Part shown: piece after piece, positions 1 through 64,000 of the stretch | Position numbering within the stretch: position 1 is the stretch's first letter | Layout: every line of letters starts with the position of its first letter | Source of the DNA: a virus | Taxonomy: Duplodnaviria > Heunggongvirae > Uroviricota > Caudoviricetes | Strand: one strand, 5' to 3' | IMG/VR virus record: IMGVR_UViG_3300045963_000248 | Location: 20,510 to 84,509 of that record | DNA length: 64,000 bases | The notes under the pieces: generated by a model | What the model was told of the DNA's origin: nothing | Seen by the model: the letters and a program-made list of their open reading frames with translations, nothing else | Databases searched by the model: none | Position numbers and translations under genes: made by a program

Positions 1-131
1 TTCAAGTTTTTCCACTAAATCTTTTTCAATAAAATTATCAATGCATGCTGAGCAGGGGCATTCAAATTCTTTAGAAGTAAAGTGATCTGTAATTTGAATA
101 TTTTCGTTTTTTTTGAATTTTAAAAGCATAC
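1..131 (-). CDS. partial CDS (N-terminal part, continues left of window), Cys-containing hypothetical protein
   Basis: ATG at 131..129 on minus strand; open frame to window edge (MLLKFKKNENIQITDHFTSKEFECPCSACIDNF...). Confidence 0.35.
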
Positions 132-140
132 CATCCTAAA

Positions 141-184
141 TAAAAAAAGGAGCTATACAAAAGAGGGAGGGAATGTATAGCTCC
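141..184 (-). terminator. intrinsic terminator-like hairpin (10-bp stem GGAGCTATAC/GTATAGCTCC) followed by T-run on minus strand
   Basis: perfect inverted repeat 149..158 / 175..184, A-run 141..148 on + (= U-run after hairpin on minus). Confidence 0.55.
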
Positions 185-205
185 AATATCGCTCATCCTG
201 AGCAT
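141..205 (-). ncRNA. candidate small RNA (~60 nt) from minus-strand sigma70 promoter to hairpin terminator
   Basis: promoter 213..241 (-) directly upstream, terminator 141..184 directly downstream, no ORF. Confidence 0.3.
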
Positions 206-212
206 TTGTTAA

Positions 213-241
213 ATAATAACACACTTTAAAAACAATGTCAA
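213..241 (-). promoter_or_regulatory. sigma70-type promoter, minus strand (TTGACA-17-TATTAT)
   Basis: revcomp of 236..241 = TTGACA; revcomp of 213..218 = TATTAT; 17-nt spacer. Confidence 0.5.
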
Positions 242-339
242 CTTTTTTCTTTACTTTGGCGAAAATATAGCTTATAGTATATAACGCTCCTCTTGGAGTA
301 CCGCAACCACTCGGACTTTCGAAATATATATCTTAATTC

Positions 340-368
340 TTGACAAAATATATAGTTTAGTATATAAT
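340..368 (+). promoter_or_regulatory. early sigma70-type promoter (TTGACA-17-TATAAT)
   Basis: ttgaca 340..345, tataat 363..368, consensus hexamers and spacing. Confidence 0.6.
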
Positions 369-403
369 TATACAACAAATATTAAAAATAATTAATTTAG
401 TTG

Positions 404-431
404 TTGACAAAAAAGTAATTATGAGTATAAT
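404..431 (+). promoter_or_regulatory. early sigma70-type promoter (TTGACA-16-TATAAT), tandem to 340..368
   Basis: ttgaca 404..409, tataat 426..431; flanking sequence is a near-duplicate of the upstream promoter unit. Confidence 0.6.
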
Positions 432-540
432 GGCTGAATTACTTGGCGGCGTTTCGCTTAGGCTCCACTTGCTGTGAGTACGTTGCTGAGCATGACAATT
501 GTGAAGCCCTAAATGCGCCCTTTTCTGAAAAATCCCAAAA

Positions 541-577
541 TACACACTATTTTCAATAATTTAACAACTTAATGTAG
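541..577 (+). promoter_or_regulatory. phage late-promoter motif copy 1 (TACACA-N14-TTAACAACTTA-ATG-TAG)
   Basis: one of ten near-identical bipartite motifs, all + strand, upstream of structural operons. Confidence 0.6.
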
Positions 578-684
578 AGAGTCTGAGTAAAACAAGTCAG
601 ACCGACACTTTAGAGTGTTATAGGGAATTCCCAGCAAGCTGCTAACGGAGTAACCAGACTTTCTTTTTAAAACAGGATGTTTAT

Positions 685-960
685 ATGCGAAAGAATGACA
701 TGTATTTTTTACTAGTATTATTATTTATTGTAAAATTGATAGCCTTGCCTATTGGATTCCCTGATGCAGCAGTACTTTTAGTATTATTAGCTTATCGACC
801 AGTATCTCAGCTTTTAAAACTGCAGGAAAAACAGAAAATTTCAAATGAGAATGCTGTAAAGTTTGCTGAAGTGGAAAATTCTTTAGAAAATATGCAGAAA
901 ACTATAGAGTCAATAAAAATTAAAGAAGCTATTGTTAACCAATTTGGTGGGAAAAGATAA
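685..960 (+). CDS. small membrane protein
   Basis: hydrophobic N-terminus; first ORF after late promoter copy 1; start overlaps next gene (ATGA). Confidence 0.45.
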   Translation: MRKNDMYFLLVLLFIVKLIALPIGFPDAAVLLVLLAYRPVSQLLKLQEKQKISNENAVKFAEVENSLENMQKTIESIKIKEAIVNQFGGKR

Positions 961-1385
961 TGACTAATTTATTAGATCTAACACAATTTCGTACTTTGAA
1001 AGAGCTTCAAGATTATGCAAATGCTCAATTTTTGACTATCAGCACTATGAAAGAAAAACTCGACGATCAAAAAAATAAGATAGCTCACTTGGAATCTTTA
1101 CTTGTAAATAAAGCTACAGTACTCGGAGTAGATTCGCAATCAGAAGAGATTGCTAAAATTGAAATAAATCGCATGTATCAAAAAGTTTTAAAAGCTCCTC
1201 TAGATTTTGCAGAAGTGAAAGCATTAGAAACGTTTACAAAAATACTTTTAGCGGCTAAAGGTAAAGAAGTTGACGAGAAAAAAGAAAAGAAAACTGAAAA
1301 AGCTTTAAAGCAATTATCACCGCAGGAATTAATTAATATTGCATTACAAAAAACTCCAGAAGAGCAGGAATCTGAAGGTAACTAA
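960..1385 (+). CDS. coiled-coil protein; candidate small terminase subunit by position only
   Basis: 141 aa, translationally coupled upstream of HNH + large terminase. Confidence 0.45.
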   Translation: MTNLLDLTQFRTLKELQDYANAQFLTISTMKEKLDDQKNKIAHLESLLVNKATVLGVDSQSEEIAKIEINRMYQKVLKAPLDFAEVKALETFTKILLAAKGKEVDEKKEKKTEKALKQLSPQELINIALQKTPEEQESEGN

Positions 1386-2026
1386 TGTCACGGGAAGATT
1401 ATTTAAAACGTCGAGAAGCTCAATTAAAATATAAAGCAGATAAACTGCGTAATAGAACCCCAGAGCAAATTGAGTTAGATCGAATTAAATCAAAAGAGTA
1501 CCGGATCGCTAATAAAGAGCGCATTAGAGAAGCTCAAAAAAAATATTACAATGATAACAAAGAGACGTTATTACAAGATGCTCAAGAATATCGAGATAGT
1601 CACCGAAAACAGATCTCCGAGAGAAACTTAAAAAAATATAAATCTGATAAACAGAAAATTCTAACTAAAAATAGAAATTACTATTACAAAAATAAAGATA
1701 GAGTTAAAGCTCAGAGAGATCAGTATCGTAGTGAAAATTTAGCGCAACATAATCATCGAAGTGCTCTGCGACATGCGGTAAAATTAAAAGCTACTCCAAA
1801 ATGGTTAACGGAAGAAGATATTTTAAACATTAAAGCTGTGTATAAAAAAGCAAAAGAGTTACAGGAGTTAGATGGGATTCCCCGAGAAGTAGATCATATA
1901 GTTCCCTTACAAGGTGAAACAGTATCAGGTTTGCATGTTCCTTGGAATTTACAAATCTTAACTAAATCTGAAAATTCCAGTAAAAAAAATAAGTTATTAG
2001 AGGAGATAGCATGTCAAGTACATTAA
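1385..2026 (+). CDS. HNH endonuclease (terminase-associated), basic YxxNK repeats + C-terminal HNH
   Basis: C-terminal GIPREVDHIVPLQGETVSGLHVPWNLQILTKSEN motif; paralog of 7843..8418 and 8873..9517; overlaps terminase start. Confidence 0.8.
   Translation: MSREDYLKRREAQLKYKADKLRNRTPEQIELDRIKSKEYRIANKERIREAQKKYYNDNKETLLQDAQEYRDSHRKQISERNLKKYKSDKQKILTKNRNYYYKNKDRVKAQRDQYRSENLAQHNHRSALRHAVKLKATPKWLTEEDILNIKAVYKKAKELQELDGIPREVDHIVPLQGETVSGLHVPWNLQILTKSENSSKKNKLLEEIACQVH
1781..1960 (+). repeat. dispersed repeat (HNH C-terminal domain coding), copy 1 of 3
   Basis: ~75-80% nt identity to 8195..8375 and 9281..9460. Confidence 0.6.
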
Positions 2027-3447
2027 CTCCTGCAGAAGCCCGTAAAGCAATATGGTTAAGCGGGAACATTGTAGATTTTCTACTAGATGCAAATCAGAAA
2101 GAAATCTATAAACAATACAAAGAATCTAGAAGGAAAACTCAAGTCGTAGTTTTAGCTAGACAGATGGGAAAGTCTTATGGACTTCTTACAATCGGAGTAC
2201 AAGAATGCCTATTACGTCCTAATATTACAGTCCACTATATAGCTCCGCGATTAAATCAAGGTAAGAAGATTGTAAGAGCTACTTTTCAAGAAATTTTTAA
2301 AACATGCCCTAAAGAATTAAGACCTGAATATAAAACTCAAGAATCCTGTTATATATTCCCTAATGGGAGTAGACTAGAGCTTGGAGGCTTTAATGCGGGG
2401 GAAATTGAATCTCAACGAGGTCCAAAATCGAACCTAATAATTTGTGATGAAGCTGGTTTCTGTGATGGATTAAATTACGGATTGCGATCTGTTCTATTTC
2501 CTAAATTAAATAGTACTAAAGGAAAAATGTTACTCTGTAGTACTTTACCAAAATCTGCAGCTCATGAATATTGGGAGATTGTAAAGAAGGCAGAATACGA
2601 TGGAACTCTCCTAAAAAAAGATATATTTGACTGCCCTAGGTATACTAAAGAAGAGATAGATAGTTTCGCAGAAGAGGTAGGTGGCTATGACTCCGTAGAT
2701 TTTCAACGTGAGTACAAATGCATGATGATTACGGACCAAGAATCCGCAGTATTCCCAGAAGCTACCGAAGAAAAAATGGCAAATATTATAAAAGAAAATA
2801 AACGTCCAGCATTTTACGATAGCTATGCAGCAATGGATATTGGTTTTCGAGACTATACTGCAGTAATATACGGATATTATGATTTTTTAAAAGGTAAAAT
2901 AATAATTGAAGATGAAATACTTTTAAAAGGTAGTAAAGTTACTACTAATTCTTTAGCGGGACTTATAAAAATTAAAGAAGATGAATTATTTCCTTCAAAG
3001 CCAGTATACCTTCGAGTATCAGATAATAATAATCCTATTTTTCTAAACGATTTAGCACAAGAGCCTCACAAATTGTATTTTATGCCAACGCTAAAAGACG
3101 ATAAGGATTCTGCAATCAGTAAAGTGAGATTATTAATCCAACAGGAAAAGATAATAATCCACCCGCGATGTAAAACACTAATTAACCACGTAAAATACGC
3201 AACTTGGGATAGTAAAAGAAGTAAATTCGAAAGAGACTTACAAAATGGTCACTTTGACGCAGCAGATGCTTTAATTTACCTGGTGCGAAACATTCAATTA
3301 CAAAAAAATCCCTATCCAAATAGTTATTTTCTCCCCGAAGGTGTTCTCTGGGATACTACCGACCGAAATGCTCCTAAAAACGATTTTGAAAAGAATATGA
3401 AGGAACTTTTTAATCCATTTCGTAAAAAAGAACAGAAAATCTCTTAA
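2011..3447 (+). CDS. terL: terminase large subunit
   Basis: Walker A-like VVLARQMGKS, Walker B IICDEAGF, C-terminal nuclease-like region; 478 aa; position before portal. Confidence 0.85.
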   Translation: MSSTLTPAEARKAIWLSGNIVDFLLDANQKEIYKQYKESRRKTQVVVLARQMGKSYGLLTIGVQECLLRPNITVHYIAPRLNQGKKIVRATFQEIFKTCPKELRPEYKTQESCYIFPNGSRLELGGFNAGEIESQRGPKSNLIICDEAGFCDGLNYGLRSVLFPKLNSTKGKMLLCSTLPKSAAHEYWEIVKKAEYDGTLLKKDIFDCPRYTKEEIDSFAEEVGGYDSVDFQREYKCMMITDQESAVFPEATEEKMANIIKENKRPAFYDSYAAMDIGFRDYTAVIYGYYDFLKGKIIIEDEILLKGSKVTTNSLAGLIKIKEDELFPSKPVYLRVSDNNNPIFLNDLAQEPHKLYFMPTLKDDKDSAISKVRLLIQQEKIIIHPRCKTLINHVKYATWDSKRSKFERDLQNGHFDAADALIYLVRNIQLQKNPYPNSYFLPEGVLWDTTDRNAPKNDFEKNMKELFNPFRKKEQKIS

Positions 3448-3459
3448 AAATCTCCAAAA

Positions 3460-3496
3460 TACACATAAATAATCAATATTTAACAACTTAATGTAG
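3460..3496 (+). promoter_or_regulatory. phage late-promoter motif copy 2
   Basis: TACACA 3460..3465, 14-nt spacer, TTAACAACTTA 3480..3490, TAG 3494..3496. Confidence 0.6.
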
Positions 3497-3525
3497 CACG
3501 AAGCTCTATAAAAATAGGTGAATAA

Positions 3526-5610
3526 ATGGTAACTACTTCAAATCGTAAAATCGAATCGACATATTTTGCCGCTAAATCCGATCCTCTGGAAGTAGCAGTT
3601 ACAGTAATGGATAAAGTAGAAACTTTTACTCAAACTCTTCGAGGTTTAGGTATTCACCAAAAACTAAGAGACTGCTGGGCAGCTTACCACGGAGCATATT
3701 ACAACACTTTCGGCGGCGGGCACCAAATTACTTTCGGCGGCGAGCAAGGTGAACTTTCTCACTTACCGATAAACCACATTAGAAATATTGCTCAACACAT
3801 GAAAACAATGACTCTAGCTTCTAGACCTAGTTTTGATGCCAGAGCAGCAAATACCGACCCAAAATCGCTTATACAAGCTCAATTAGCTTCAGGCTTACTA
3901 GATTACTATATGCGTGAAAAACGCTTAGAAAGATACATTTCTACAGCCGTGGAATACGCTATTGTTTTAGGAGCCGGGTACGTAAAGACAGCTTGGGACC
4001 AAGGACAAGGAAAAATTACAGAAAGAGATACTGACGAGGAAGGAAGAGACGTAATAATCCGTGAAGGTGATATTACTTTTTCCAACCTCTCCCCTTTTGA
4101 AGTTATTTACGACTTATCGAAACAAGATCAAAATCACGATTGGCTAATTACAGTAGAATTCAAAAATAGATACGATATTATTGCAAAGTTCCCGGAGCAC
4201 GAATCTGAAATTTTAGGGCTTGGCGGAAAAGACGAATGGCAAGGGTTAATTTTTAACAAAACTATGGCTACGGAAGAAATTCCAGTGTTTACTTTTTTCC
4301 ACAGACCTACAGATTCAGTACCTGACGGAAGAGAGATCATTTTAGTATCTGAAAACTGTGTTTTAACAGATCAGCCGCTACCGTACAAAGAAATACCAGT
4401 TTATCGAGTTTCCCCGAACGACGTTTTGGGAACTGCAATGGGTTACGCTAACATTTACGATTTATTGCCAATTCAAGATGCAATTAATACTTGCTATACT
4501 TCAGTATTTTCAAATCAAGTTGCTTTTGGGACACAAAACCTATTTGTCGAAACTGGAAGTAATATTTCCATGTCAAATTTAGGCGGCGGATTAAATATTA
4601 TCGAAGGGTTAAAAAAACCAGAAGTGTTACAACTTTTAGGAACATCCCCCCAAAGTTTTCAGTTAATTACTATGCTAGAAAATCTAATGGAAACACTTTC
4701 AGGGATAAACTCAGTCACCCGGGGTAATCCAGAAGCTAATTTAAAATCAGGAACATCTTTAGCTATGGTGCAATCTATGGCAGTACAGTTTATTTCTGGT
4801 TTACAGCAACAATATGTATGTTTACTAGAAGATGTTGGTACAGGTGTAATTAATATTCTAAAAGATTATGCTACAGAGCCGAGAGTAGCCAGTATAGTTG
4901 GAAAAAATAATAAAGCTTATTTGAAAACTTTTAAATCTGATGATTTACAAGAAGTAAATAGAGTAATTGTAGACGTAGGAAATCCTCTTGCAAAAACTAC
5001 TGCAGGAAGAATGGAAATTGCACAACAATTAATGCAAATGAAGCCTGACGACTTTACTATTGCTCAATTTATACAGTTAATTAATACTGGTAATTTAGAT
5101 GTAATGACAGATAGATCAACTAAAAAAATTAATCAACTAGAAATGGAAAATGAAAGACTAATGGCAGGAACTCCTGTAAAAGCTTTTGCATTTGACGACC
5201 ATATTGAACACATAAAAGAACATACAAGTTTACTAGACGATCCAGATATTCGTGAAAGTGACGAATTAAATGCTGCAGTATTAGCACATATTCAAGAACA
5301 CATCGATTTATCGAGAAACACTGACCCTGCAGTACAGCAAGCGTTAGGACACCAAGTTTTACCTCCTCTACCGCCGCCAATGCCAATGGACGCAAACGGT
5401 AATCCGTTACCTCCGCCTCCAGTAGGTCCAGATGGACAGCCTTTACAGGTTCCACCGGCAAATGCTCAGGGAGCTATGCAAAATGATGCTGGAAATATGC
5501 CTAATCCACCGGCACCTACTCCTAATTTACCAAATGTTCCACAGGGAGCAGAAGTTCAAGCAACAAATCCGCAAGATATGCTAAGTATTGTCGCAGGTCA
5601 GAAAAGTTAA
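3526..5610 (+). CDS. portal protein (Pro-rich C-terminal tail)
   Basis: 694 aa directly after large terminase; size and position typical of portal; C-terminal PPLPPPMP... low-complexity tail. Confidence 0.7.
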   Translation: MVTTSNRKIESTYFAAKSDPLEVAVTVMDKVETFTQTLRGLGIHQKLRDCWAAYHGAYYNTFGGGHQITFGGEQGELSHLPINHIRNIAQHMKTMTLASRPSFDARAANTDPKSLIQAQLASGLLDYYMREKRLERYISTAVEYAIVLGAGYVKTAWDQGQGKITERDTDEEGRDVIIREGDITFSNLSPFEVIYDLSKQDQNHDWLITVEFKNRYDIIAKFPEHESEILGLGGKDEWQGLIFNKTMATEEIPVFTFFHRPTDSVPDGREIILVSENCVLTDQPLPYKEIPVYRVSPNDVLGTAMGYANIYDLLPIQDAINTCYTSVFSNQVAFGTQNLFVETGSNISMSNLGGGLNIIEGLKKPEVLQLLGTSPQSFQLITMLENLMETLSGINSVTRGNPEANLKSGTSLAMVQSMAVQFISGLQQQYVCLLEDVGTGVINILKDYATEPRVASIVGKNNKAYLKTFKSDDLQEVNRVIVDVGNPLAKTTAGRMEIAQQLMQMKPDDFTIAQFIQLINTGNLDVMTDRSTKKINQLEMENERLMAGTPVKAFAFDDHIEHIKEHTSLLDDPDIRESDELNAAVLAHIQEHIDLSRNTDPAVQQALGHQVLPPLPPPMPMDANGNPLPPPPVGPDGQPLQVPPANAQGAMQNDAGNMPNPPAPTPNLPNVPQGAEVQATNPQDMLSIVAGQKS

Positions 5611-5655
5611 ATATGAAGTGGTGTAAAAAACAAATACGATAAAAGAGGGTAAGAA

Positions 5656-6369
5656 ATGCACGACGAAAACGATCCAAGATTTAAAAAATTATTAGACAAT
5701 TTAAAAAGTCAGACGGATGCGTATAACGCTGCAAATAAACCTGTAATACAAATTCCAGATTCGTTGCAAGCTCATGGCGAAGTTACTCATCAAATTCCAA
5801 TGGATATGCCAAAATCTGTACCAGCGGAGCAACTTGCTCACGTAGCGGAAGAAATTCCACATAATCCAGGAATGTTAAAAAATCTAGAAGATCAATCTGC
5901 AAAATTCCTAGGCGCTGGAAATAAAATGGAGCAATTTGATCACGTGGTAAATCCAGCAAAAATCACAGATCTTTCCCCTCAGTTACTAAATAAATACATG
6001 AAAACTGGTATCCCTTTAGTCGATAAAGCATACAGTCCACTTGGAAATATCGCAAGAAAAGCTAGTAGCCTTGCTCCAGCGCTTTTAAAAGCTTTAGGAG
6101 TAGGAGGAGCACTTTACGGAATGTCTCAGGGGGATGCTTTTGCAGCCGATCCTACAGGTATGCTACACAGCGAGGAAGCTGGAAAAGGTAGCGATGTAAT
6201 TCCTACAGGTGCAGATCATTTCAATGCAGTAAACGACTCTAGAATGGATACTAAAATACTTCCTAAAGCTATTTCCCCGCAGTCCATAGACGCAACTCAG
6301 GAACCAGAGGAGCGGGCAAAGACGCAAGCATTCGATGCACTTTTAAATCAGATGAGACAGAAGCCTTAA
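5656..6369 (+). CDS. hypothetical head-module protein
   Basis: 237 aa ORF with SD (agaggg) between portal and scaffold. Confidence 0.5.
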   Translation: MHDENDPRFKKLLDNLKSQTDAYNAANKPVIQIPDSLQAHGEVTHQIPMDMPKSVPAEQLAHVAEEIPHNPGMLKNLEDQSAKFLGAGNKMEQFDHVVNPAKITDLSPQLLNKYMKTGIPLVDKAYSPLGNIARKASSLAPALLKALGVGGALYGMSQGDAFAADPTGMLHSEEAGKGSDVIPTGADHFNAVNDSRMDTKILPKAISPQSIDATQEPEERAKTQAFDALLNQMRQKP

Positions 6370-6697
6370 AACGTTTTACATACCAGTGTTTTGAAATATC
6401 AGGTCTTCTATAAGGTATTTTAGTATTATATTTGTATACACCGTTTAGCCAAGCATACGCTACGTGCTCAGGGGAATCCGTTCCAATAGTTTTTACCACA
6501 AAATCGTAACCTAAAGATGCTTTCTGTATTTCAGACAGTTTTACATTTTTGTATTTAAATGCTTTTTTAGCGTCCGAGAGGAATTTAGGCATAATGCCGT
6601 ATTCACCTTTTGCAGAGGAAGCATGTTGTAAATATTTCCCGTCTGAGGATTCGAGATAGCGTATAATTTTTAATGTTTCAGTTTTTTGCATATCCAT
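6269..6697 (-). CDS. putative lysozyme-like / lytic transglycosylase (SLT-like) protein; convergent moron in head module
   Basis: ES...GxxGIMP...AYAWLNG resembles SLT family motifs (ES / GLMQ / AYNxG); own sigma70 promoter 6704..6732 (-); 100-nt 3' overlap with 5656..6369. Confidence 0.4.
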   Translation of the reverse strand: MDMQKTETLKIIRYLESSDGKYLQHASSAKGEYGIMPKFLSDAKKAFKYKNVKLSEIQKASLGYDFVVKTIGTDSPEHVAYAWLNGVYKYNTKIPYRRPDISKHWYVKRFKASVSSDLKVHRMLASLPAPLVPELRLWTAGK

Positions 6698-6703
6698 AAA
6701 ACT

Positions 6704-6732
6704 AGTTTACCATTAAATTACAATAATGTCAA
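6704..6732 (-). promoter_or_regulatory. sigma70-type promoter, minus strand (TTGACA-17-TAAACT) for 6269..6697
   Basis: revcomp 6727..6732 = TTGACA; revcomp 6704..6709 = TAAACT; 17-nt spacer; overlaps upstream half of late promoter copy 3. Confidence 0.5.
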
Positions 6733-6733
6733 A

Positions 6734-6772
6734 TACACAAAAACAGATCAAATTTAACAACTTATACTGTAG
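6734..6772 (+). promoter_or_regulatory. phage late-promoter motif copy 3
   Basis: TACACA 6734..6739, N14, TTAACAACTTA 6754..6764, TAG 6770..6772; 31 nt identical to copy 4. Confidence 0.6.
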
Positions 6773-6812
6773 CAAGCAATAATGCCCTACAACTATAGCC
6801 TACCCCGAAAGG

Positions 6813-7757
6813 ATGGCAACAGGAGTATTTATGTCAGGTGAAAACGAAGGGTCAATCGACTCGTCGGCGGATTTTAGTCCAGAAGAAACAGCAGAATTTG
6901 ATGCAGAACAATCAGTTGGAGAGCAAGCTCCGGTATCTGCAGAACAAAAAGCTATCGAAGAGAAAATTAACGAATTAGAAATGGAACTTAAAGTTAACGG
7001 AAAAGTTATTAAGGAAAAAGTAAACCTTAACGATAAAGTACGTTTACAAAAAGCATTTCAAATGGAAAAAGCTGCACAGGAAGCAATGGCTAAATCTGCT
7101 AGCTCTCAAAAACAAATTGCTCAGATGGAGCAGGAAATGGATCAATTTTTACAAATGTTAAAAAATGACCCAATGAAAATTCTCAGTAATCCAGCTTTAG
7201 GATTAAAACTTGAAGATATGGCAGATAAAATACTAGCACAGAAAATTGAAGAAGCTAGCAAATCTCCAGAAACTATTGAGCTAGAAAAAGCTAGAGCAAA
7301 ACTAGAAGAATATGAAAAGAAAATACACGAAGAGAAATTAGCTAGAGAAACTGCAGAAAGACAGAAATTAGAAGCAGATGCAGAAGCTCATATTCAAGGT
7401 GAAATTATGGAAGCTATCGAATCTGGAAGCTTGCCGAAGTCTCCGTATATTATTAATAAAATGGCACAGCTTGCTAGTATTGCTTTTGATAATAATATTG
7501 ATGTAAACATGAAAGATTTAGCACCTATTGTAAAACGTATGTATTCTAGAGATATGAAGGATATGGCTGAAAAGATGTCAGATGATGAAATTGAAGAAAT
7601 TATTACATCGGATCGCGTTAAGAGTATTCGAAATAAAAGAATACAGGCGGCGAGAGGTAAAATGCAAAGTGCCACTAAAATTGTAGATACTGGCTCAAAA
7701 TCTCCTGCAAAAAAAGAAACTCCAGTACAAAGACGAAGACTCGATGCTGACTGGTAA
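6813..7757 (+). CDS. scaffolding protein (acidic coiled-coil)
   Basis: 314 aa, E/K-rich coiled-coil, located between portal and capsid. Confidence 0.55.
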   Translation: MATGVFMSGENEGSIDSSADFSPEETAEFDAEQSVGEQAPVSAEQKAIEEKINELEMELKVNGKVIKEKVNLNDKVRLQKAFQMEKAAQEAMAKSASSQKQIAQMEQEMDQFLQMLKNDPMKILSNPALGLKLEDMADKILAQKIEEASKSPETIELEKARAKLEEYEKKIHEEKLARETAERQKLEADAEAHIQGEIMEAIESGSLPKSPYIINKMAQLASIAFDNNIDVNMKDLAPIVKRMYSRDMKDMAEKMSDDEIEEIITSDRVKSIRNKRIQAARGKMQSATKIVDTGSKSPAKKETPVQRRRLDADW

Positions 7758-7785
7758 GATTAACTAAAATTTAACCCCTAACTGA

Positions 7786-7808
7786 GGGAGCTTATGGCTC
7801 CCTTTTCT
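7786..7808 (+). terminator. intrinsic terminator (GGGAGC-TTATG-GCTCCC + TTTT)
   Basis: 6-bp GC-rich stem 7786..7802 then T-run 7803..7806, after scaffold gene. Confidence 0.55.
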
Positions 7809-7841
7809 ACACAAAAACAGATCAAATTTAACAACTTATAG
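7808..7841 (+). promoter_or_regulatory. phage late-promoter motif copy 4 (start codon 7843 lies 2 nt after TAG: near-leaderless)
   Basis: TACACA 7808..7813, N14, TTAACAACTTA 7828..7838, TAG 7839..7841. Confidence 0.6.
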
Positions 7842-7842
7842 T

Positions 7843-8418
7843 ATGAAACATTGTAAAAAGTGTAATACTTTAAAGTTAAAAATTGAATTCCATAAAAATA
7901 AATCATTGAAAGATGGGCTATATGGAACTTGTAAAATTTGTACTAGAGCTATCAATAAACAATATACCAAAAACAATCCGGACATTATAAAAAAATCTAG
8001 TAGAAAATCTTATATTAAAAATAAAGATAAGATACTTTTAGAGAATAAAAAATGGGCAGAAAATAATACTGAAAAAGTAAAAGCTATAAAAAATAAATGG
8101 GCTAATAAACACATAGACCAAAAAAGAAGTAAAAATAGAAGGTGGAAAAAGGAAAATCCAGATAAAGTTAATGCTCAAACTGCTAAACGTCGAGCTGCTA
8201 AATTACAAGCAACTCCTCCTTGGATATCTGAGGAGCATTTAAAAGAAATAGAAAAATTCTATACGGAAGCTAAAAGGTTAGAAGCTACAGATGGAATTCC
8301 TCGAGAAGTGGATCATATATTACCTCTACAAGGGGATGGAGTTTCCGGTCTTCACGTTCCTTGGAATTTACAAGTTATTACTGAGTTTGAAAATAGAAGT
8401 AAACATAATAAATACTGA
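7843..8418 (+). CDS. HNH endonuclease with N-terminal CxxC zinc ribbon
   Basis: CKKC...CKIC ribbon, basic NK repeats, C-terminal AKLQATPPWISEEHL...GIPREVDHILPLQGDGVSGLHVPWNL motif. Confidence 0.8.
   Translation: MKHCKKCNTLKLKIEFHKNKSLKDGLYGTCKICTRAINKQYTKNNPDIIKKSSRKSYIKNKDKILLENKKWAENNTEKVKAIKNKWANKHIDQKRSKNRRWKKENPDKVNAQTAKRRAAKLQATPPWISEEHLKEIEKFYTEAKRLEATDGIPREVDHILPLQGDGVSGLHVPWNLQVITEFENRSKHNKY
8195..8375 (+). repeat. dispersed repeat (HNH C-terminal domain coding), copy 2 of 3
   Basis: ~75-80% nt identity to 1781..1960 and 9281..9460. Confidence 0.6.
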
Positions 8419-8872: not shown

Positions 8873-9517
8873 GTGACTGTGAAAACTTGTACAAAGTGCG
8901 GCATTGAAAAAGAATTAACGGTTGATAATTTTAAACCAAGAAAGAAGTCTAAAGATGGATTTAGAAATGATTGTAGAGTATGTTCTAATTTAAAACATGC
9001 GGAATGGACTATTGAGAATTTAGATAAAGCAAAAGCTAATCAAGCTAGATGGTATCAGAATAATAAAGAACATGCCAAAATAGTTCAAGATAAATATTAC
9101 CAAGACAATAAAGAAAAGAAATTAGCACAGCAAAAAATTTATCGCAAAAATAATAAAATAAAAATAGATTTGAAAAATAAAAACTGGGCAGATAAGAATC
9201 CTGCTAAAATAAAACAGTATAATAAAGAATTCGGACAAAGACATCCTGACAAAATTGCAGCAAAAACTGCAAAAAGACGAGCTGCTAAACTACAAGCCAC
9301 TCCTCCGTGGCTTACAGAAGAGCACTTAAAGCAAATTGAAGATTTATATACTGAGTCTAAACGACTAGAAGCTTTAGATGGGATTCCTCGTGAAGTTGAT
9401 CATATCATACCGTTATTAGGGGAGACTGTTAGAGGTTTACACGTGCCTTGGAATTTAAGAGTAATTACGGCTAAAGAAAACGGTAGTAAAAACAATAAGT
9501 TAATTCTAATAGATTAA
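8873..9517 (+). CDS. HNH endonuclease with N-terminal CxxC zinc ribbon (GTG start; alternative GTG at 8879)
   Basis: CTKC...CRVC ribbon, basic NK repeats, C-terminal AKLQATPPWLTEEHL...GIPREVDHIIPLLGETVRGLHVPWNL. Confidence 0.8.
   Translation: MTVKTCTKCGIEKELTVDNFKPRKKSKDGFRNDCRVCSNLKHAEWTIENLDKAKANQARWYQNNKEHAKIVQDKYYQDNKEKKLAQQKIYRKNNKIKIDLKNKNWADKNPAKIKQYNKEFGQRHPDKIAAKTAKRRAAKLQATPPWLTEEHLKQIEDLYTESKRLEALDGIPREVDHIIPLLGETVRGLHVPWNLRVITAKENGSKNNKLILID
9281..9460 (+). repeat. dispersed repeat (HNH C-terminal domain coding), copy 3 of 3
   Basis: ~75-80% nt identity to 1781..1960 and 8195..8375. Confidence 0.6.
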
Positions 9518-9691: not shown

Positions 9692-10939
9692 ATGGCAAAC
9701 GTTGCCGCAGACCTAACCCGATTAAACGGGCTTGTTAAAGAAGTGTATGGAGATAGTGTTATTGAACTTATTCCAATACAATCTAAACTTCAATCAATCA
9801 TTAAATTCGCTGAGAGAAACAAAACTCCAGGGAACTTTTTCTCTCAACCTTTAGCTCTTCAATTAGAGCACGGTGTAACTTATGCAGATGGTGACGATGG
9901 AGCTTTCGCTCTTAACGACGCTATTTCTTCTGTAGTTAAACATGCAAGAGTACGCGGTTCTCAAATGCTTTTGAGATCAGTAATCGCTTACGAACTTCTT
10001 GCAGCAGCTAATACAAAAGACAACAGATCTTTTGAAAACGCTACAAAATATATCGTTCAAGCAATGGTAGATTCTATGTCTAAAAAACATGAAGTATCAT
10101 TAATGTACGGTGGTAACAACATCGGTATCGTTTCTGGAGCAGTAACTTCTGCAGTTTCGATCACTGACGCTGAATGGGCACCAGGTATCTATTCAGGTGC
10201 AAAAGATATGAAAGTTGACATCTTTGACTCTGCAAAATCAGTGTTAAGAGGAACTTTCGTAATTTCAGGTGTTGACTTCGACCTTAAAAAAATTACTATG
10301 ACAACTGACGCTGCTGCGGCTGGTGTTGTTGCTACAGACGTAATCCTTCCTGCTGGTGCATACCAAATCGGTGGATCTTCTGCTGGTAAAGAAATGGTAG
10401 GATTACACGAAATCCTAGCTAACACTGGTACACTTTTCGAAATTTCTGCTGCTCAGTATGAATTATGGAAAGGTAACGTGTATAACGCTGGTGGAGAATT
10501 AACTTTCGAAAAACTTATTAAAGCAATGGCTCGTCCGGCTGAAAAAGGTTTAGAAAAAGACGTTATCGCTATCGTTAACCCAAAAACTTGGTCATCTTTA
10601 ATGAAAGATCAAGCTGCTTTAAGAAGATTTGACTCTTCATACAGCACTAAGAAATTAGATAACGGTGCAATGGCTATCGAATTTTATTGTCAATCAGGTA
10701 AAATTGAAGTTCAATCTTCTATTTACTGTAAAGAAGCTTACGCTTATATCTTCAATGCTGAAGACATGAAACGTATTGGTTCTACAGACATCACTTTCCA
10801 ATTACCAGGATTACCAGATAATTTCTTAACTCAAGCTCCAAACAATGCTGGATATGAATTAAGATGTTACGTAAACTCTGCATTATTCTGTAGAGCGCCA
10901 GGTAAGACTTTATTGATTACGGGTATCACGCATCCATGA
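9692..10939 (+). CDS. major capsid protein
   Basis: 415 aa after scaffold; own promoter, long leader, strong terminator downstream; composition typical of a highly expressed structural protein. Confidence 0.65.
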   Translation: MANVAADLTRLNGLVKEVYGDSVIELIPIQSKLQSIIKFAERNKTPGNFFSQPLALQLEHGVTYADGDDGAFALNDAISSVVKHARVRGSQMLLRSVIAYELLAAANTKDNRSFENATKYIVQAMVDSMSKKHEVSLMYGGNNIGIVSGAVTSAVSITDAEWAPGIYSGAKDMKVDIFDSAKSVLRGTFVISGVDFDLKKITMTTDAAAAGVVATDVILPAGAYQIGGSSAGKEMVGLHEILANTGTLFEISAAQYELWKGNVYNAGGELTFEKLIKAMARPAEKGLEKDVIAIVNPKTWSSLMKDQAALRRFDSSYSTKKLDNGAMAIEFYCQSGKIEVQSSIYCKEAYAYIFNAEDMKRIGSTDITFQLPGLPDNFLTQAPNNAGYELRCYVNSALFCRAPGKTLLITGITHP

Positions 10940-10966: not shown

Positions 10967-10995
10967 GAAGGCGAGAATTTCTCGCCTTCTTTTTA
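10967..10995 (+). terminator. intrinsic terminator (GAAGGCGAG-AATTT-CTCGCCTTC + T5)
   Basis: 9-bp GC-rich stem 10967..10989, T-run 10990..10994, right after capsid gene. Confidence 0.7.
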
Positions 10996-20183: not shown

Positions 20184-20594
20184 ATGGCGGATCTAACTGA
20201 ATTACAAGCAGCATTACCCTCTAAGATCATAGGAAGTGATCTTACTGGTAATGAGACAAACGCAGTAAATGCTACTCCTACTGGTGACTTAACAGTATCA
20301 GATGGACTTAGTGCTGGCGGGCTTGTCGGCAATTTAAATTTGGTTACAGCTAATACAGCTTACGAAGCAAAAGTTTCGACTAGTAGATTAACAAATAGAA
20401 AGATTTTAACAATAGTAGCATTCGATGCTGATATGTTTTTTGGAATGAGTAATACTGTAACTACAAGTACAGGATTTCCCCTCTATAAAGGACAATCAGT
20501 ATCGTTTTCTATTGATGCAAACTCTCCAACATTTCAAGTGTGGTTAGTTTGCTCTGGTGCAAATAAAAATGCAAGAATAATGGAGACTCCATAA
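20184..20594 (+). CDS. hypothetical structural protein
   Basis: 136 aa, coupled to neighbours. Confidence 0.45.
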   Translation: MADLTELQAALPSKIIGSDLTGNETNAVNATPTGDLTVSDGLSAGGLVGNLNLVTANTAYEAKVSTSRLTNRKILTIVAFDADMFFGMSNTVTTSTGFPLYKGQSVSFSIDANSPTFQVWLVCSGANKNARIMETP

Positions 20595-61544: not shown

Positions 61545-62276
61545 CTACATCATTATTGTCCAAAAGTCATCACTCATATTACGATTTTGTATAACTTTAA
61601 ATGGCATCCAAAAATAGCCATTTTGACCCCAATCGTCTCCCCACGAGTTTTTAACTAGTAACATCTTTTTATGAGTATTGTACCCTATAGCAACTACTGC
61701 ATGCCCTCCGGCTGCTCTTTCCAATAGTTTAGGGTAAGGCATTATTCCAGTATTAGCAACTTCCTCAGTTAGGAAAGATTCATATACTGTAAATCCCATT
61801 ACTATGCCGTGCCCGGAAGCTATACAATCTAGCATTTCTTTTAGATTACTTACCCGGCGGTAACTTAGAAGTTTTCTATGCATTGCGTTTGCATAAGCCA
61901 GTGCGGAAGGTTCTTTTTTAAATGCCTCCACAATATATGGGTAAAACTGTTCAGAGCAAGCTCCAACTTTAGCGCATGCTTTTATCCCGTCTCGAATCGA
62001 TGCTCCGGAATCATTACTAATCGAGCCTTCCAGTTTTCGTTCCTGAAAGTAAATAAATAAAGCAGAGATTTCAGTTTTAGCTACTAACTCTTCTTCAATT
62101 AAACTTGCAATTGCGTTTCCAGTACACGAGCCTAAATCCCCCTGATCTTTTATAGCGGAATCTTCGTCTCGTAAATCCATAGATACTGGAAGTTTCATAT
62201 TTGACATTTTATATTTTAGATCTCTGTGATCTGGTAAATCTGGTAGCCATTTTTTTGCTATTTTAAAATTTTGCAT
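61545..62276 (-). CDS. papain-family (C1) cysteine peptidase
   Basis: catalytic Cys QGDLGSCTGNAIAS, His GGHAVVAIGY, Asn KNSWGDDWGQNGYFWMPF: canonical C1 triad context. Confidence 0.75.
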   Translation of the reverse strand: MQNFKIAKKWLPDLPDHRDLKYKMSNMKLPVSMDLRDEDSAIKDQGDLGSCTGNAIASLIEEELVAKTEISALFIYFQERKLEGSISNDSGASIRDGIKACAKVGACSEQFYPYIVEAFKKEPSALAYANAMHRKLLSYRRVSNLKEMLDCIASGHGIVMGFTVYESFLTEEVANTGIMPYPKLLERAAGGHAVVAIGYNTHKKMLLVKNSWGDDWGQNGYFWMPFKVIQNRNMSDDFWTIMM

Positions 62277-62282
62277 ATATTC

Positions 62283-63074
62283 CTATGGTGCCGTTACAGT
62301 TGCATGGTCGAGCGTGACTGCAGTCTGTGCTAATAATCTTCCATTAATTGTTGCTCCTGTTTGCATTGCAATTAATGTTTGGGAAAGTATATTCCCTTCC
62401 ATGTGTGCTCCTGTACCTACAGTTACAACATCTCCTACGACAAAGAAAATATTCTTAGCTTGGATTCCTCCAGTTAAAATTATATGCATTCCAGAAGCTA
62501 CAGTAACTCCTCCGGCAATCTGTAAAATAATTACATCTTCAGATCCTCCGTTAAAATAAACATCAGAGGCAATTAGTAAACCAGTTCCCCATTTGTATAG
62601 TCCAGGTTCCAAAGTTAGTCCACTAATATTTCCACTAGCTAATTCAGTTGCATCCGGATTAGGTCTGCCCATAGCATCGGTGTAAGCTGCTTCCATATCT
62701 GAAACTGCAGTAGTTAAATTACTCGGAGTCGGGACTGCGTAATTCGCAGCATAGATTTTTCCAGTAACTTGAGCTGAAGTTGAGAAAACATTTGAAGCAT
62801 CGGCTACTAAAGAAAATCCTGTAATAAAAGATGCAGCGGCGGGACTCACTCCTAAATTTCCAGTAATAGTCGAAGGCACCACTGTTGAAATTGCAGCCTT
62901 TGCTAGGATTACAAAATTACCTGCAGTACGCAAGTTTACTGGATCTGGTCCAGCCATTTGTCCGGGATTCTGAGTGTGACCGGAGTCTGCTCCACTCGGC
63001 GGAGAGTCGCTTCCGCAACTTGTTAGCAATAGCAATCCAGCTAGGATTACAATCGCCATTTTTAACTTTTTCAT
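62283..63074 (-). CDS. DUF3494 (ice-binding-like beta-helix) lipoprotein
   Basis: lipobox LLLTSC; LRTAGNFVILAKAAISTV...ITGNLGVSPAA and C-terminal repetitive beta-helix typical of DUF3494. Confidence 0.65.
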   Translation of the reverse strand: MKKLKMAIVILAGLLLLTSCGSDSPPSGADSGHTQNPGQMAGPDPVNLRTAGNFVILAKAAISTVVPSTITGNLGVSPAAASFITGFSLVADASNVFSTSAQVTGKIYAANYAVPTPSNLTTAVSDMEAAYTDAMGRPNPDATELASGNISGLTLEPGLYKWGTGLLIASDVYFNGGSEDVIILQIAGGVTVASGMHIILTGGIQAKNIFFVVGDVVTVGTGAHMEGNILSQTLIAMQTGATINGRLLAQTAVTLDHATVTAP

Positions 63075-63864: not shown

Positions 63865-64000
63865 TTATGCTCCCTTTTTCCAGAACTGATTTGTGAACGT
63901 TTTTGTGGCATGCTGTGCATGTTTTACATTATGTGTTACTAATTTATTAAATACCGTTACAGAGCTGTCTAAATACTGTTCCGCAGCTTCGGAATGCCCT
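63865..64000 (-). CDS. partial CDS (C-terminal part; begins right of window)
   Basis: open frame to window end, stop overlaps downstream ATG (TAAAATG). Confidence 0.3.
   Translation of the reverse strand, partial: GHSEAAEQYLDSSVTVFNKLVTHNVKHAQHATKTFTNQFWKKGA

Follow-up and report, generated by a model that had tools for sequence, protein, structure and literature searches.

We found a short two-hairpin RNA encoded directly ahead of the endolysin operon of an uncultivated tailed phage (Caudoviricetes), in the region where its two genome arms diverge. The sequence analysed, hereafter the window, is a stretch of 64,000 nucleotides (nt), positions 20,510 to 84,509 of the IMG/VR record IMGVR_UViG_3300045963_000248, and the region of interest lies at 130-684. 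Here a leftward sigma70-type promoter (P_L) would read across a small 5' hairpin (HP1) into an intrinsic-terminator-type hairpin (HP2, or T_L) immediately in front of the endolysin gene, and with moderate confidence we interpret the P_L RNA as a promoter-proximal attenuator or gate of the endolysin operon. A preliminary description of the region had proposed duplicated rightward promoters and a leftward small RNA (sRNA), either antisense or regulatory, with an attenuator as its second option; all the signals that it named were confirmed, and its interpretation held up in part.

The 555 nt between a minus-strand ATG (129-127) and a plus-strand start at 685 hold no genes and form the sole divergence point of the phage genome, the left-arm genes all pointing away from it. 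Endolysin, nucleotide-metabolism and replication genes make up the leftward arm, and packaging and structural genes, headed by p91, make up the rightward arm. The leftward unit comprises the following features:

241-213, minus strand: P_L, TTGACA-17-TATTAT, 11 of 12 consensus positions, TG upstream
191..203, minus strand: HP1, small 5' hairpin GCUC-AGGAU-GAGC, the loop containing GGA
142..184, minus strand: T_L/HP2, intrinsic-terminator-type hairpin with arms 184-174 and 159-149 (11 base pairs (bp), perfect), a 14-nt loop UUCCCUCCCUCUUU and a U7 run at 148-142
134..137, minus strand: endolysin ribosome-binding site (RBS) AGGA, 4 nt upstream of the ATG at 129-127 and 4 nt past the end of the U-run
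1..129, minus strand: 5' end of the endolysin gene (Peptidase_M15_3; full protein of 134 amino acids (aa), extending past the left edge of the window), gene 1 of the leftward operon

Promoters were scanned for on both strands as -35 TTGACA and -10 TATAAT hexamers 16-18 bp apart. This returned the minus-strand promoter at 213..241 as it had been described, and its position is kept in six sister phages (see below). Transcription from its predicted start at ~206-204 would yield a 63-65-nt RNA ending at the U-run, with a fold z-score of -2.5. The free energy of the T_L stem-loop (-15.6 kcal/mol) equals that of the terminator after the major-capsid gene, and perfect hairpins of 8 bp or more followed by a T5 or longer run occur just twice in the window, as T_L and at 10967-10989. 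The latter, a strong intrinsic terminator, has a GC-rich stem of 10 bp, a 3-nt loop and a T5 run and lies just past the major head protein gene (9692-10939). T_L likewise has the stable hairpin and directly adjacent U-run of an intrinsic terminator, with U6-7 in all seven phages, and was passed over by a standard scan (loop 3-8) because its loop is 14 nt long. The perfect hairpin and U-run reported earlier were therefore present, but with a stem of 11 bp rather than 10, and the minus-strand gene placed at 131 actually starts at 129. The endolysin RBS is free in the predicted fold of the leftward RNA.

P_L appears to be the only strong promoter serving the leftward operon over its initial 9.3 kb: no minus-strand promoter scoring above 10 of 12 was found in the 9.3 kb downstream of the endolysin start. 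We rejected an antisense role for the transcript because nothing is transcribed from the opposite strand across 142-206, and the leader or attenuator option describes it better, because the U-run adjoins the endolysin RBS in all seven phages and no other strong promoter was found. Lambdoid Q systems have a sigma70-dependent pause element close to the promoter, a -10-like sequence in the initially transcribed region. In the P_L transcript, ~+17 to +22 reads GATATT (site 212-185), which is -10-like and is not conserved in the sister phages.

Three further ideas about the hairpins were discarded. Leader-peptide attenuation would use a possibly leaderless open reading frame (ORF) of 44 codons (205-71) that crosses the hairpin; its AUG is missing in two of the seven phages (AGGAAG), and no ORF is conserved. 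Kissing between the HP1 and HP2 loops through GGAU/AUCC pairing could form in some phages, not in the window, L042 or L043, and a plus-strand ORF starting from GAGGGAGGGAATG in the hairpin loop is not conserved. As a separate observation, an 11-bp stem identical to that of T_L (GGAGCTATACA/TGTATAGCTCC), with a 20-nt loop of another sequence, occurs at 232-273 of the phage L040 (IMGVR_UViG_3300027917_000048), where it is an ordinary intergenic, bidirectional terminator after a capsid-like gene; the identity is probably a coincidence, as that phage has no protein homology to the window.

The strongest evidence for the leftward unit came from relatives. A protein search with p91 returned 27 of them at 53-74% identity, and contigs fetched for six supplied six distinct intergenic sequences. 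These six sister phages (p91 58-67% identical), which with the window phage form the close subfamily, all keep the architecture of the window (alignment A7). Each has the leftward series TTGAC(A/T)-17/18-TAnnnT, HP1, spacer, HP2, U6-7, RBS and endolysin ATG, with a predicted RNA of 65-71 nt, and the distance from the U-run to the endolysin RBS region is 1-7 nt in all seven phages. HP1 has 5-9 bp, with a covarying stem and the loop (C)AGGA(U/A)G in all seven. The spacer between the hairpins is short and C/U-rich in the six sisters, whereas GAUAUU in the window is not C/U-rich. HP2 has 11-14 bp and a kept loop core of AUCCCUC(U/C) or UCCCUC, and its stem varies in sequence among phages yet remains paired, the 5' arm reading:

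Window: GGAGCUAUACA
L041, L042, L043 and L045: GCCUACACA
L044: GAGCCUUUGCAG
L048: GCCUACGUA

Ten of the 19 base pairs of the leftward RNA were changed on both sides, compared with 2.7 +/- 1.3 in shuffled alignments (0 of 500 reached the observed value), and 91.6% of cells were paired, versus 29-48% when the 3' partners were slid. A covariance model of the unit (R2) gave one match per genome, always ahead of the endolysin, and none in a distant subfamily of 16 distinct metagenomic phages (L002-L029; large terminase TerL ~55% and p91 ~35% identical), in which the gene order is endolysin, intergenic region, p91, p141, TerL. An IMG/VR pattern search returned 117 matches, and none of the 80 listed loci fit R2. 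No Rfam 15 family fits window positions 1-1200 (E <= 10), where the top match scored 22.5 bits against a gathering score of 48.4. By this comparison, the unit from P_L to T_L encodes a structured RNA that is genuinely conserved.

In the working that we propose, host sigma70 RNA polymerase would bind P_L and three rightward promoters (P_R0, P_R1 and P_R2) first. Leftward transcripts would fold into HP1 and HP2, most of them stopping at the U-run as a short RNA, and the endolysin operon would be expressed through read-through only, because no other strong promoter was found for it and its RBS stands 4 nt past the U-run. Read-through would most likely be aided by a factor that recognises the conserved loops, which we infer because the loops are conserved and no conserved alternative fold was found. 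Rightward transcripts would serve an accessory early gene in the sister phages, and in the window phage would cross an orphan 5' untranslated region (5'UTR) into a late promoter (560-577) and the structured p91 leader.

Several observations weigh against this attenuator interpretation. The 14-nt loop is large for an efficient intrinsic terminator, and termination at T_L could therefore be weak. The conserved loops would suit the seed of a trans-acting sRNA as well as a factor-binding site, and across the seven phages no conserved antiterminator alternative fold for T_L was found. Among the scanned window proteins (Pfam/PHROGs) and in the precomputed Pfam lists of contigs L016, L031, L032 and L034, which make up most of the genome, nothing was recognised as an RNA polymerase, sigma factor, antiterminator, repressor or integrase. 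The distant subfamily is without a T_L-type terminator and has a late-type motif before the endolysin RBS instead, so terminator gating is not universal in the phage family. Finally, it is not obvious why strong sigma70 promoters should feed a packaging and structural operon, unless their transcripts are stopped at the late leader too.

A possible but doubtful alternative is that the P_L-to-T_L unit primarily makes a free-standing trans-acting sRNA of 65-71 nt, whose Shine-Dalgarno (SD)-like AGGAUG and anti-SD-like AUCCCUC loops would act on host or phage mRNAs, on ribosomes or on a CsrA/Hfq-type protein, read-through into the endolysin gene being incidental. The unit has the classic anatomy of an sRNA, with a consensus promoter of its own, a pair of hairpins and a Rho-independent terminator, and conserved loops on covarying stems are as expected of seed or protein-binding loops. 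The HP2 loop has a 9-nt complement (8 nt in the loop plus the adjoining stem base) to the RBS of the gene at 5656 (AAAAGAGGG; best match the 8-mer AAAGAGGG), and the weak top Rfam 15 match in the sister phage L042 was the Hfq sRNA CyaR, far under threshold (21 bits against a gathering score of 47). However, no extended specific target complementarity of the loop was found in the 83 kb examined, each genome carries one copy, and the links to CsrA and Hfq are resemblances. Because the U-run adjoins the endolysin RBS region and the operon has no other strong promoter, the element must also be a leader. The sRNA and attenuator readings are compatible with each other.

On the rightward side the intergenic region contains the following promoter features:

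340-368, plus strand: P_R1, TTGACA-17-TATAAT, 12 of 12
404-431, plus strand: P_R2, TTGACA-16-TATAAT, 12 of 12, with GGCTGA next
250-278, plus strand: P_R0, TTTACT-17-TATAGT, 9 of 12, weak
286-299, plus strand: 5' hairpin of P_R0, GCUCC-UCUU-GGAGU (GCUC-GAAA-GAGU in the sister phages)

The two strong consensus promoters of the preliminary description, at 340..368 and 404..431, both matched the consensus in full, and its possible weaker third corresponds to P_R0. The near-duplicate units in which it had placed the promoters are real repeats, but the unit AAATATAG..GTATATAA joins P_R0 (248-284) to P_R1 (331-367) at 73% identity and not P_R1 to P_R2, which have only the upstream and -35 part in common (322-348 and 386-412, respectively; 78%). 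P_R1, P_R2 and P_L each have sigma70-type hexamers at a spacing of 16-18 bp, and their position and hexamers are kept in the six sister phages. Alignment A7 shows conservation of all three rightward promoters and of the 5' hairpin of P_R0, with the P_R2 homologue TTTACA-16-TATAAT-GGCTGA in five of the six sisters. The -10 element and spacer of P_R1, AGTTTAGTATATAAT, are invariant across the seven phages, in the form AGTTTAGTATATAAT(A/T)ATACA. We infer that these promoters are used by the host sigma70 RNA polymerase.

It is scarcely credible that these are chance or non-functional look-alikes of the consensus in AT-rich DNA. The genome is indeed 64% AT, and the six matches of at least 11 of 12 in the 64 kb (both strands) are only twice the Markov-1 expectation of 2.9. 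However, three of the six fall in the 555-nt intergenic region, where composition-matched simulations gave at least three matches in 0 of 3000 cases (at least one in 2.8%), and the elements are positionally conserved, with covarying hairpins, where the flanking proteins are only 58-67% identical. More near-consensus sigma70 promoters (TTGACA-16/17-TATACT or TATTAT) were observed in left-arm gaps, at 48798-48771 and 42145-42117 of the window (minus strand) and at 1858-1830 and 9274-9301 of contig L031 from the same phage (position 9722 of which is window position 64000, in reversed orientation). One of the L031 promoters heads a lone opposite-strand gene of 97 aa, a second small divergent spot.

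In the distant subfamily the promoters are arranged differently. Fifteen of the 16 phages have a conserved leftward sigma70 promoter (e.g. L010 6136-6164, L012 1232-1261, L015 971-1000) in which TGTATAAT is invariant. It is placed upstream of the late promoter, past the rightward promoters, and it faces these TATACT promoters across a conserved hairpin block, in contrast to the back-to-back arrangement of the window. Palindromic AGTATACT motifs are repeated near these promoters. The face-to-face promoters and palindromes are reminiscent of the P2/186 switches, and the P_R1 spacer and -10 element are invariant in the seven phages beyond what a promoter alone requires, as they might be if the conserved spacers were operators of a repressor-controlled switch of the lysis/lysogeny type. 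We consider such a switch very improbable: the searched genes and precomputed Pfam lists contain no integrase, CI/Cro-like or other repressor match, the ribonucleotide reductase (RNR)-like protein, dUTPase, DNA polymerase and primase-helicase suggest a virulent phage, no prophage copy turned up, and no relative was found in 185,579 genomes besides chance matches.

Downstream of the rightward promoters, the window contains:

438..559, plus strand: orphan 5'UTR, with a hairpin block at 442-490, a degraded RBS and start codon GTGAAGCCCTAAATG (ATG 513-515) and a deletion scar
560..577, plus strand: late-promoter-type motif TTTAACAACTTAATGTAG, 26.1 bits, inside the family range
577..668, plus strand: structured late leader, with a closing stem GAGAGUCUG (577-585) / CAGACUUUC (655-663), inner hairpins and a U5 run at 664-668
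674-677, plus strand: p91 RBS, AGGA
685..960, plus strand: p91, small membrane protein with a hydrophobic N-terminal region consistent with two segments and a charged C-terminus

The ~230-nt rightward leader proposed earlier is not one unit, and divides into the orphan 5'UTR (438-512 plus the scar) and the separate structured late leader (577-668). As one structured RNA, 436-690 was rejected (z = +0.26), the structure being confined to 576-672. The sister phages (L041-L051) have a variable gene slot between P_R2 and the late promoter (e.g. L041 2020-2355). Its occupant is a GNAT acetyltransferase (111 aa), a 109-aa protein accompanied by either small ORFs or an HNH gene, or an additional gene of 165 aa. 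The 5'UTR hairpin block of the window is homologous to that of the sisters, as are its RBS and ATG. Where the window has GTGAAGCCCTAAATG, they read AGGAAGCCCGAACTATG, the start of the GNAT or other gene. Only a 19-codon remnant ORF (513-572) is left in the window, from which we conclude that the early-gene slot has been deleted in this phage; with the slot empty, 438-560 is an orphan 5'UTR. In the sister phages the tandem rightward promoters would drive a variable accessory early gene, which agrees with the early control role first proposed for them. The slot resembles a "moron" position behind strong promoters, filled differently among the sisters and empty here.

The late motif, TTTAACAACTTA-WWD-TAG, has ten plus-strand copies in the window (positions 561, 3480, 6754, 7828, 8842, 9541, 11560, 18256, 27648 and 35416), all intergenic in the structural arm and scoring 25-32 bits, several of them directly before an RBS. 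This distribution suggests that the motif acts as a promoter. The late-promoter copy noted earlier in the leader is one of these ten, and, as it lies downstream of the rightward promoters, two transcription classes would share the p91 leader, in line with the early and late overlap originally described. A hybrid of P_L with a late promoter was also considered and rejected, since the late-motif look-alike within P_L (TTTAACAAATG) reaches less than 12 bits and lacks conservation. An eleventh copy of the motif, TTTTTTAACAACTTAAGGTAGAGAG, lies outside the window and is the sole copy pointing in the left-arm direction. Right after it begins a stretch of ~1.1 kb (L031 3330-4418) with no ORF longer than 43 aa and no Rfam match at E <= 1, which by eye is apparently G+C-richer than its surroundings and is a candidate for a large late non-coding RNA.

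The late leader itself folds at -25.1 kcal/mol (z = -2.49). In the close subfamily covariation is seen both in its closing stem and in its inner hairpins, and a U-rich run and then the p91 RBS always follow the stem; 92.5% of cells were paired, and covariation was 0.313 versus 0.172 in shuffles (0 of 500). The closing stem reads as follows in three sister phages:

L041: AGCUCAAG / CUUGAGCU
L043: AGCUCUCG / CGAGAGCU
L044: AGCUCG / CGAGCU

With its U-run, this stem is a weak terminator candidate only. In the distant subfamily, the ~80 nt ahead of p91 are far better conserved than the proteins and form a closed series of stem-loops, with 96% of cells paired and a covariation of 0.164 versus 0.101 in shuffles (0 of 500). 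The covariance model made from this leader (R1) had its best window match at 577-676, a weak one (12.8 bits, E = 2.7). The late motif of these phages, ATAACAAATRTA, also occurs directly before the endolysin RBS, without a hairpin there.

The wider genome bears on one further explanation. Window positions 1-6763 are identical to the Logan contig SRR35489880_36899 (83,281 bp, circularly assembled), the ends of which the window spans, and the phage genome is therefore ~84 kb and circular or permuted. Positions 1-4684 are also identical to a contig of a second run, SRR35489358, and the window is 99.99% identical to a JGI contig (1 mismatch in 10,657 nt). Every gene from 40.6 to 64 kb is on the minus strand, including those for a family-A DNA polymerase, a primase-helicase, Erf, an exonuclease and a dNMP kinase. 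We regard it as improbable that 130-684 is mainly a replication origin, in which the tandem promoters in an AT-rich stretch would supply primer or activating transcripts and the short leftward RNA would be a primer. Transcription-linked origins are known from phages, such as the T7 primary origin and T4 oriF and oriG, and the window phage has a T7-like replication set (family-A DNA polymerase, primase-helicase). The cumulative GC skew turns at the 130-684 region and at ~40 kb, and 320-435 is very AT-rich and followed by a GC-rich transcribed hairpin block. However, the skew cannot be separated at all from gene orientation, since transcription of both arms leads away from 130-684, no iterons or DnaA-box-like repeats were found apart from the promoter duplications, and ordinary protein genes lie directly behind the promoters in the sister phages. 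An origin role would not exclude promoter function.

The endolysin was called by phrog_894 (E = 2.5e-6), and the complete gene with its Pfam match is present on the identical contig L016. It is followed in the tightly packed leftward operon by a 122-aa protein, which by eye appears HU/IHF-like, a 108-aa protein, an AAA ATPase, a phosphoesterase and a lipoprotein, with RNR-like and dUTPase genes farther along. The rightward operon begins p91, p141, HNH endonuclease and TerL (2011-3447), an order kept in all relatives (for the HNH gene at 1385-2026, see below), and is continued by the portal gene (3526-5610) and a 40-kb structural arm that includes the major head protein and tail fibres. No cultured near relatives were found by megablast, the top TerL match among 50,697 phage records was 26.5% identical, and a TerL scan of the 185,579 genomes gave no relative, the five leader-pattern matches being chance occurrences in unrelated metagenome-assembled genomes.

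Several side observations were made along the genome. The window has three paralogous HNH endonuclease genes (1385-2026, 7843-8418 and 8873-9517; mutual identity 40-43%), two directly behind late-promoter copies and one overlapping the terminase start. The gene at 1385-2026 has no counterpart between p141 and TerL in distant relatives, which suggests that the paralogues are free-standing homing endonucleases. A 30-nt direct repeat that includes a late promoter (AAAAACAGATCAAATTTAACAACTTATA) occurs at 6740-6769 and 7814-7843. Between the copies is a 1,047-nt segment with a 314-aa ORF (6813-7757), and 6764-7810 is missing from the circular Logan assembly, which points to either an insertion/deletion polymorphism or a collapse of the assembly at the repeat. 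Adjoining minus-strand genes at 61545-63074, which are unusual phage cargo, code for a cysteine peptidase of the papain family (Peptidase_C1, E = 4e-18) and for a protein that is ice-binding-like (PF11999, E = 3e-67).

Two conserved covarying RNA elements absent from Rfam are new here, the leader before the endolysin operon and the multi-hairpin leader before the packaging operon, together with a transcription-map hypothesis for a family of uncultivated ~80-kb freshwater phages without a cultured relative. If read-through of T_L is regulated, it would be an antitermination-type timing device without a known antiterminator family; if T_L simply leaks, it would be an ordinary expression-setting attenuator. 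More speculatively, and we hold this to be unlikely, the P_L RNA could represent a new class of phage regulatory RNA, combining an anti-SD loop in the terminator hairpin with an SD/CsrA-type GGA loop in the 5' hairpin. It would be a factor-read switch (put/nut-like or protein-dependent antitermination) timing the endolysin and early-metabolism operon, the terminated RNA perhaps also acting in trans, with RBSs or a global RNA-binding protein as its targets. On the other arm its counterpart would be the late leader (577-668), and structured RNAs would then gate both arms.

Known systems resemble the region in part. Phage T7 has the early promoters A1, A2 and A3 and the early gene 0.3/ocr, and T5 and T4 also have early promoter clusters. 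As at A1-A3, strong promoters for the host RNA polymerase stand in tandem within ~200 nt, with a structured, untranslated leader and then an accessory, presumably host-directed early gene behind them (GNAT or other small genes in the sister phages). Unlike A1-A3, the junction here is internal and divergent rather than at a genome end, and it reads into the packaging and structural arm; unlike in T7, no phage-encoded RNA polymerase was recognised, and the early gene is missing in the window phage.

The leftward RNA resembles HK022 putL/putR and the lambda nut sites (boxA plus boxB) as a promoter-proximal element of two stem-loops and ~65-70 nt with conserved loop nucleotides, and CUCUUUA in five of the seven terminator loops presumably resembles boxA. 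In contrast to put and nut, which act on downstream terminators, the second stem-loop is itself a terminator with a U-run, and no N-like gene, sequence similarity or Rfam match to them was found. The HP2 loop AUCCCUC(U/C) is complementary to GGAG/GAGG RBSs, which we take to be comparable to RsaE/RoxS-type sRNAs, and HP1 with its flanks (ACAGGAUG) presumably resembles the CsrA consensus from systematic evolution of ligands by exponential enrichment (SELEX), with GGA in a hairpin loop as in CsrB/RsmZ. Unlike CsrB/RsmZ, there is a single GGA hairpin and not an array, and Rfam gave no matches to the RsaE/RoxS or CsrB/RsmZ families. As with the T4 lysozyme gene e, the endolysin would be reachable from an early host-type promoter and restrained by RNA structure in the early leader. 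The T4 leader, however, hides the RBS and the late promoter starts inside the hairpin, whereas here the predicted fold leaves the RBS free and the structure is that of a terminator, and the close subfamily has no late promoter before the endolysin (late position weight matrix below 12 bits).

We found no specific precedent in the literature for a terminator-before-endolysin design, and the nearest functional analogue appears to be lambda PR'-tR' with its 6S RNA. In lambdoid late control, the constitutive promoter PR' is followed by the terminator tR', which yields the 6S RNA, and the Q antiterminator then allows expression of the lysis genes S-R-Rz. Both arrangements have a strong sigma70 promoter, a short transcribed stretch, an intrinsic terminator and a lysis gene first behind it, and in both the promoter alone should give a short terminated RNA, the genes needing read-through. 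Membership of that family fails on the Q gene: the searched genes include no recognisable Q-family member, and upstream of P_L there are only the rightward promoters. The leader is also 65 nt rather than ~194 nt, the terminator adjoins the RBS, and the conserved terminator loop and 5' GGA hairpin have no counterpart at PR'. The operon behind it runs into the HU/IHF-like gene (by eye), the AAA ATPase and nucleotide-metabolism genes, not virion genes. The region combines elements of known kinds, namely early promoters clustered in tandem, a terminator leader close to its promoter and a late leader with RNA structure, and is not categorically new.

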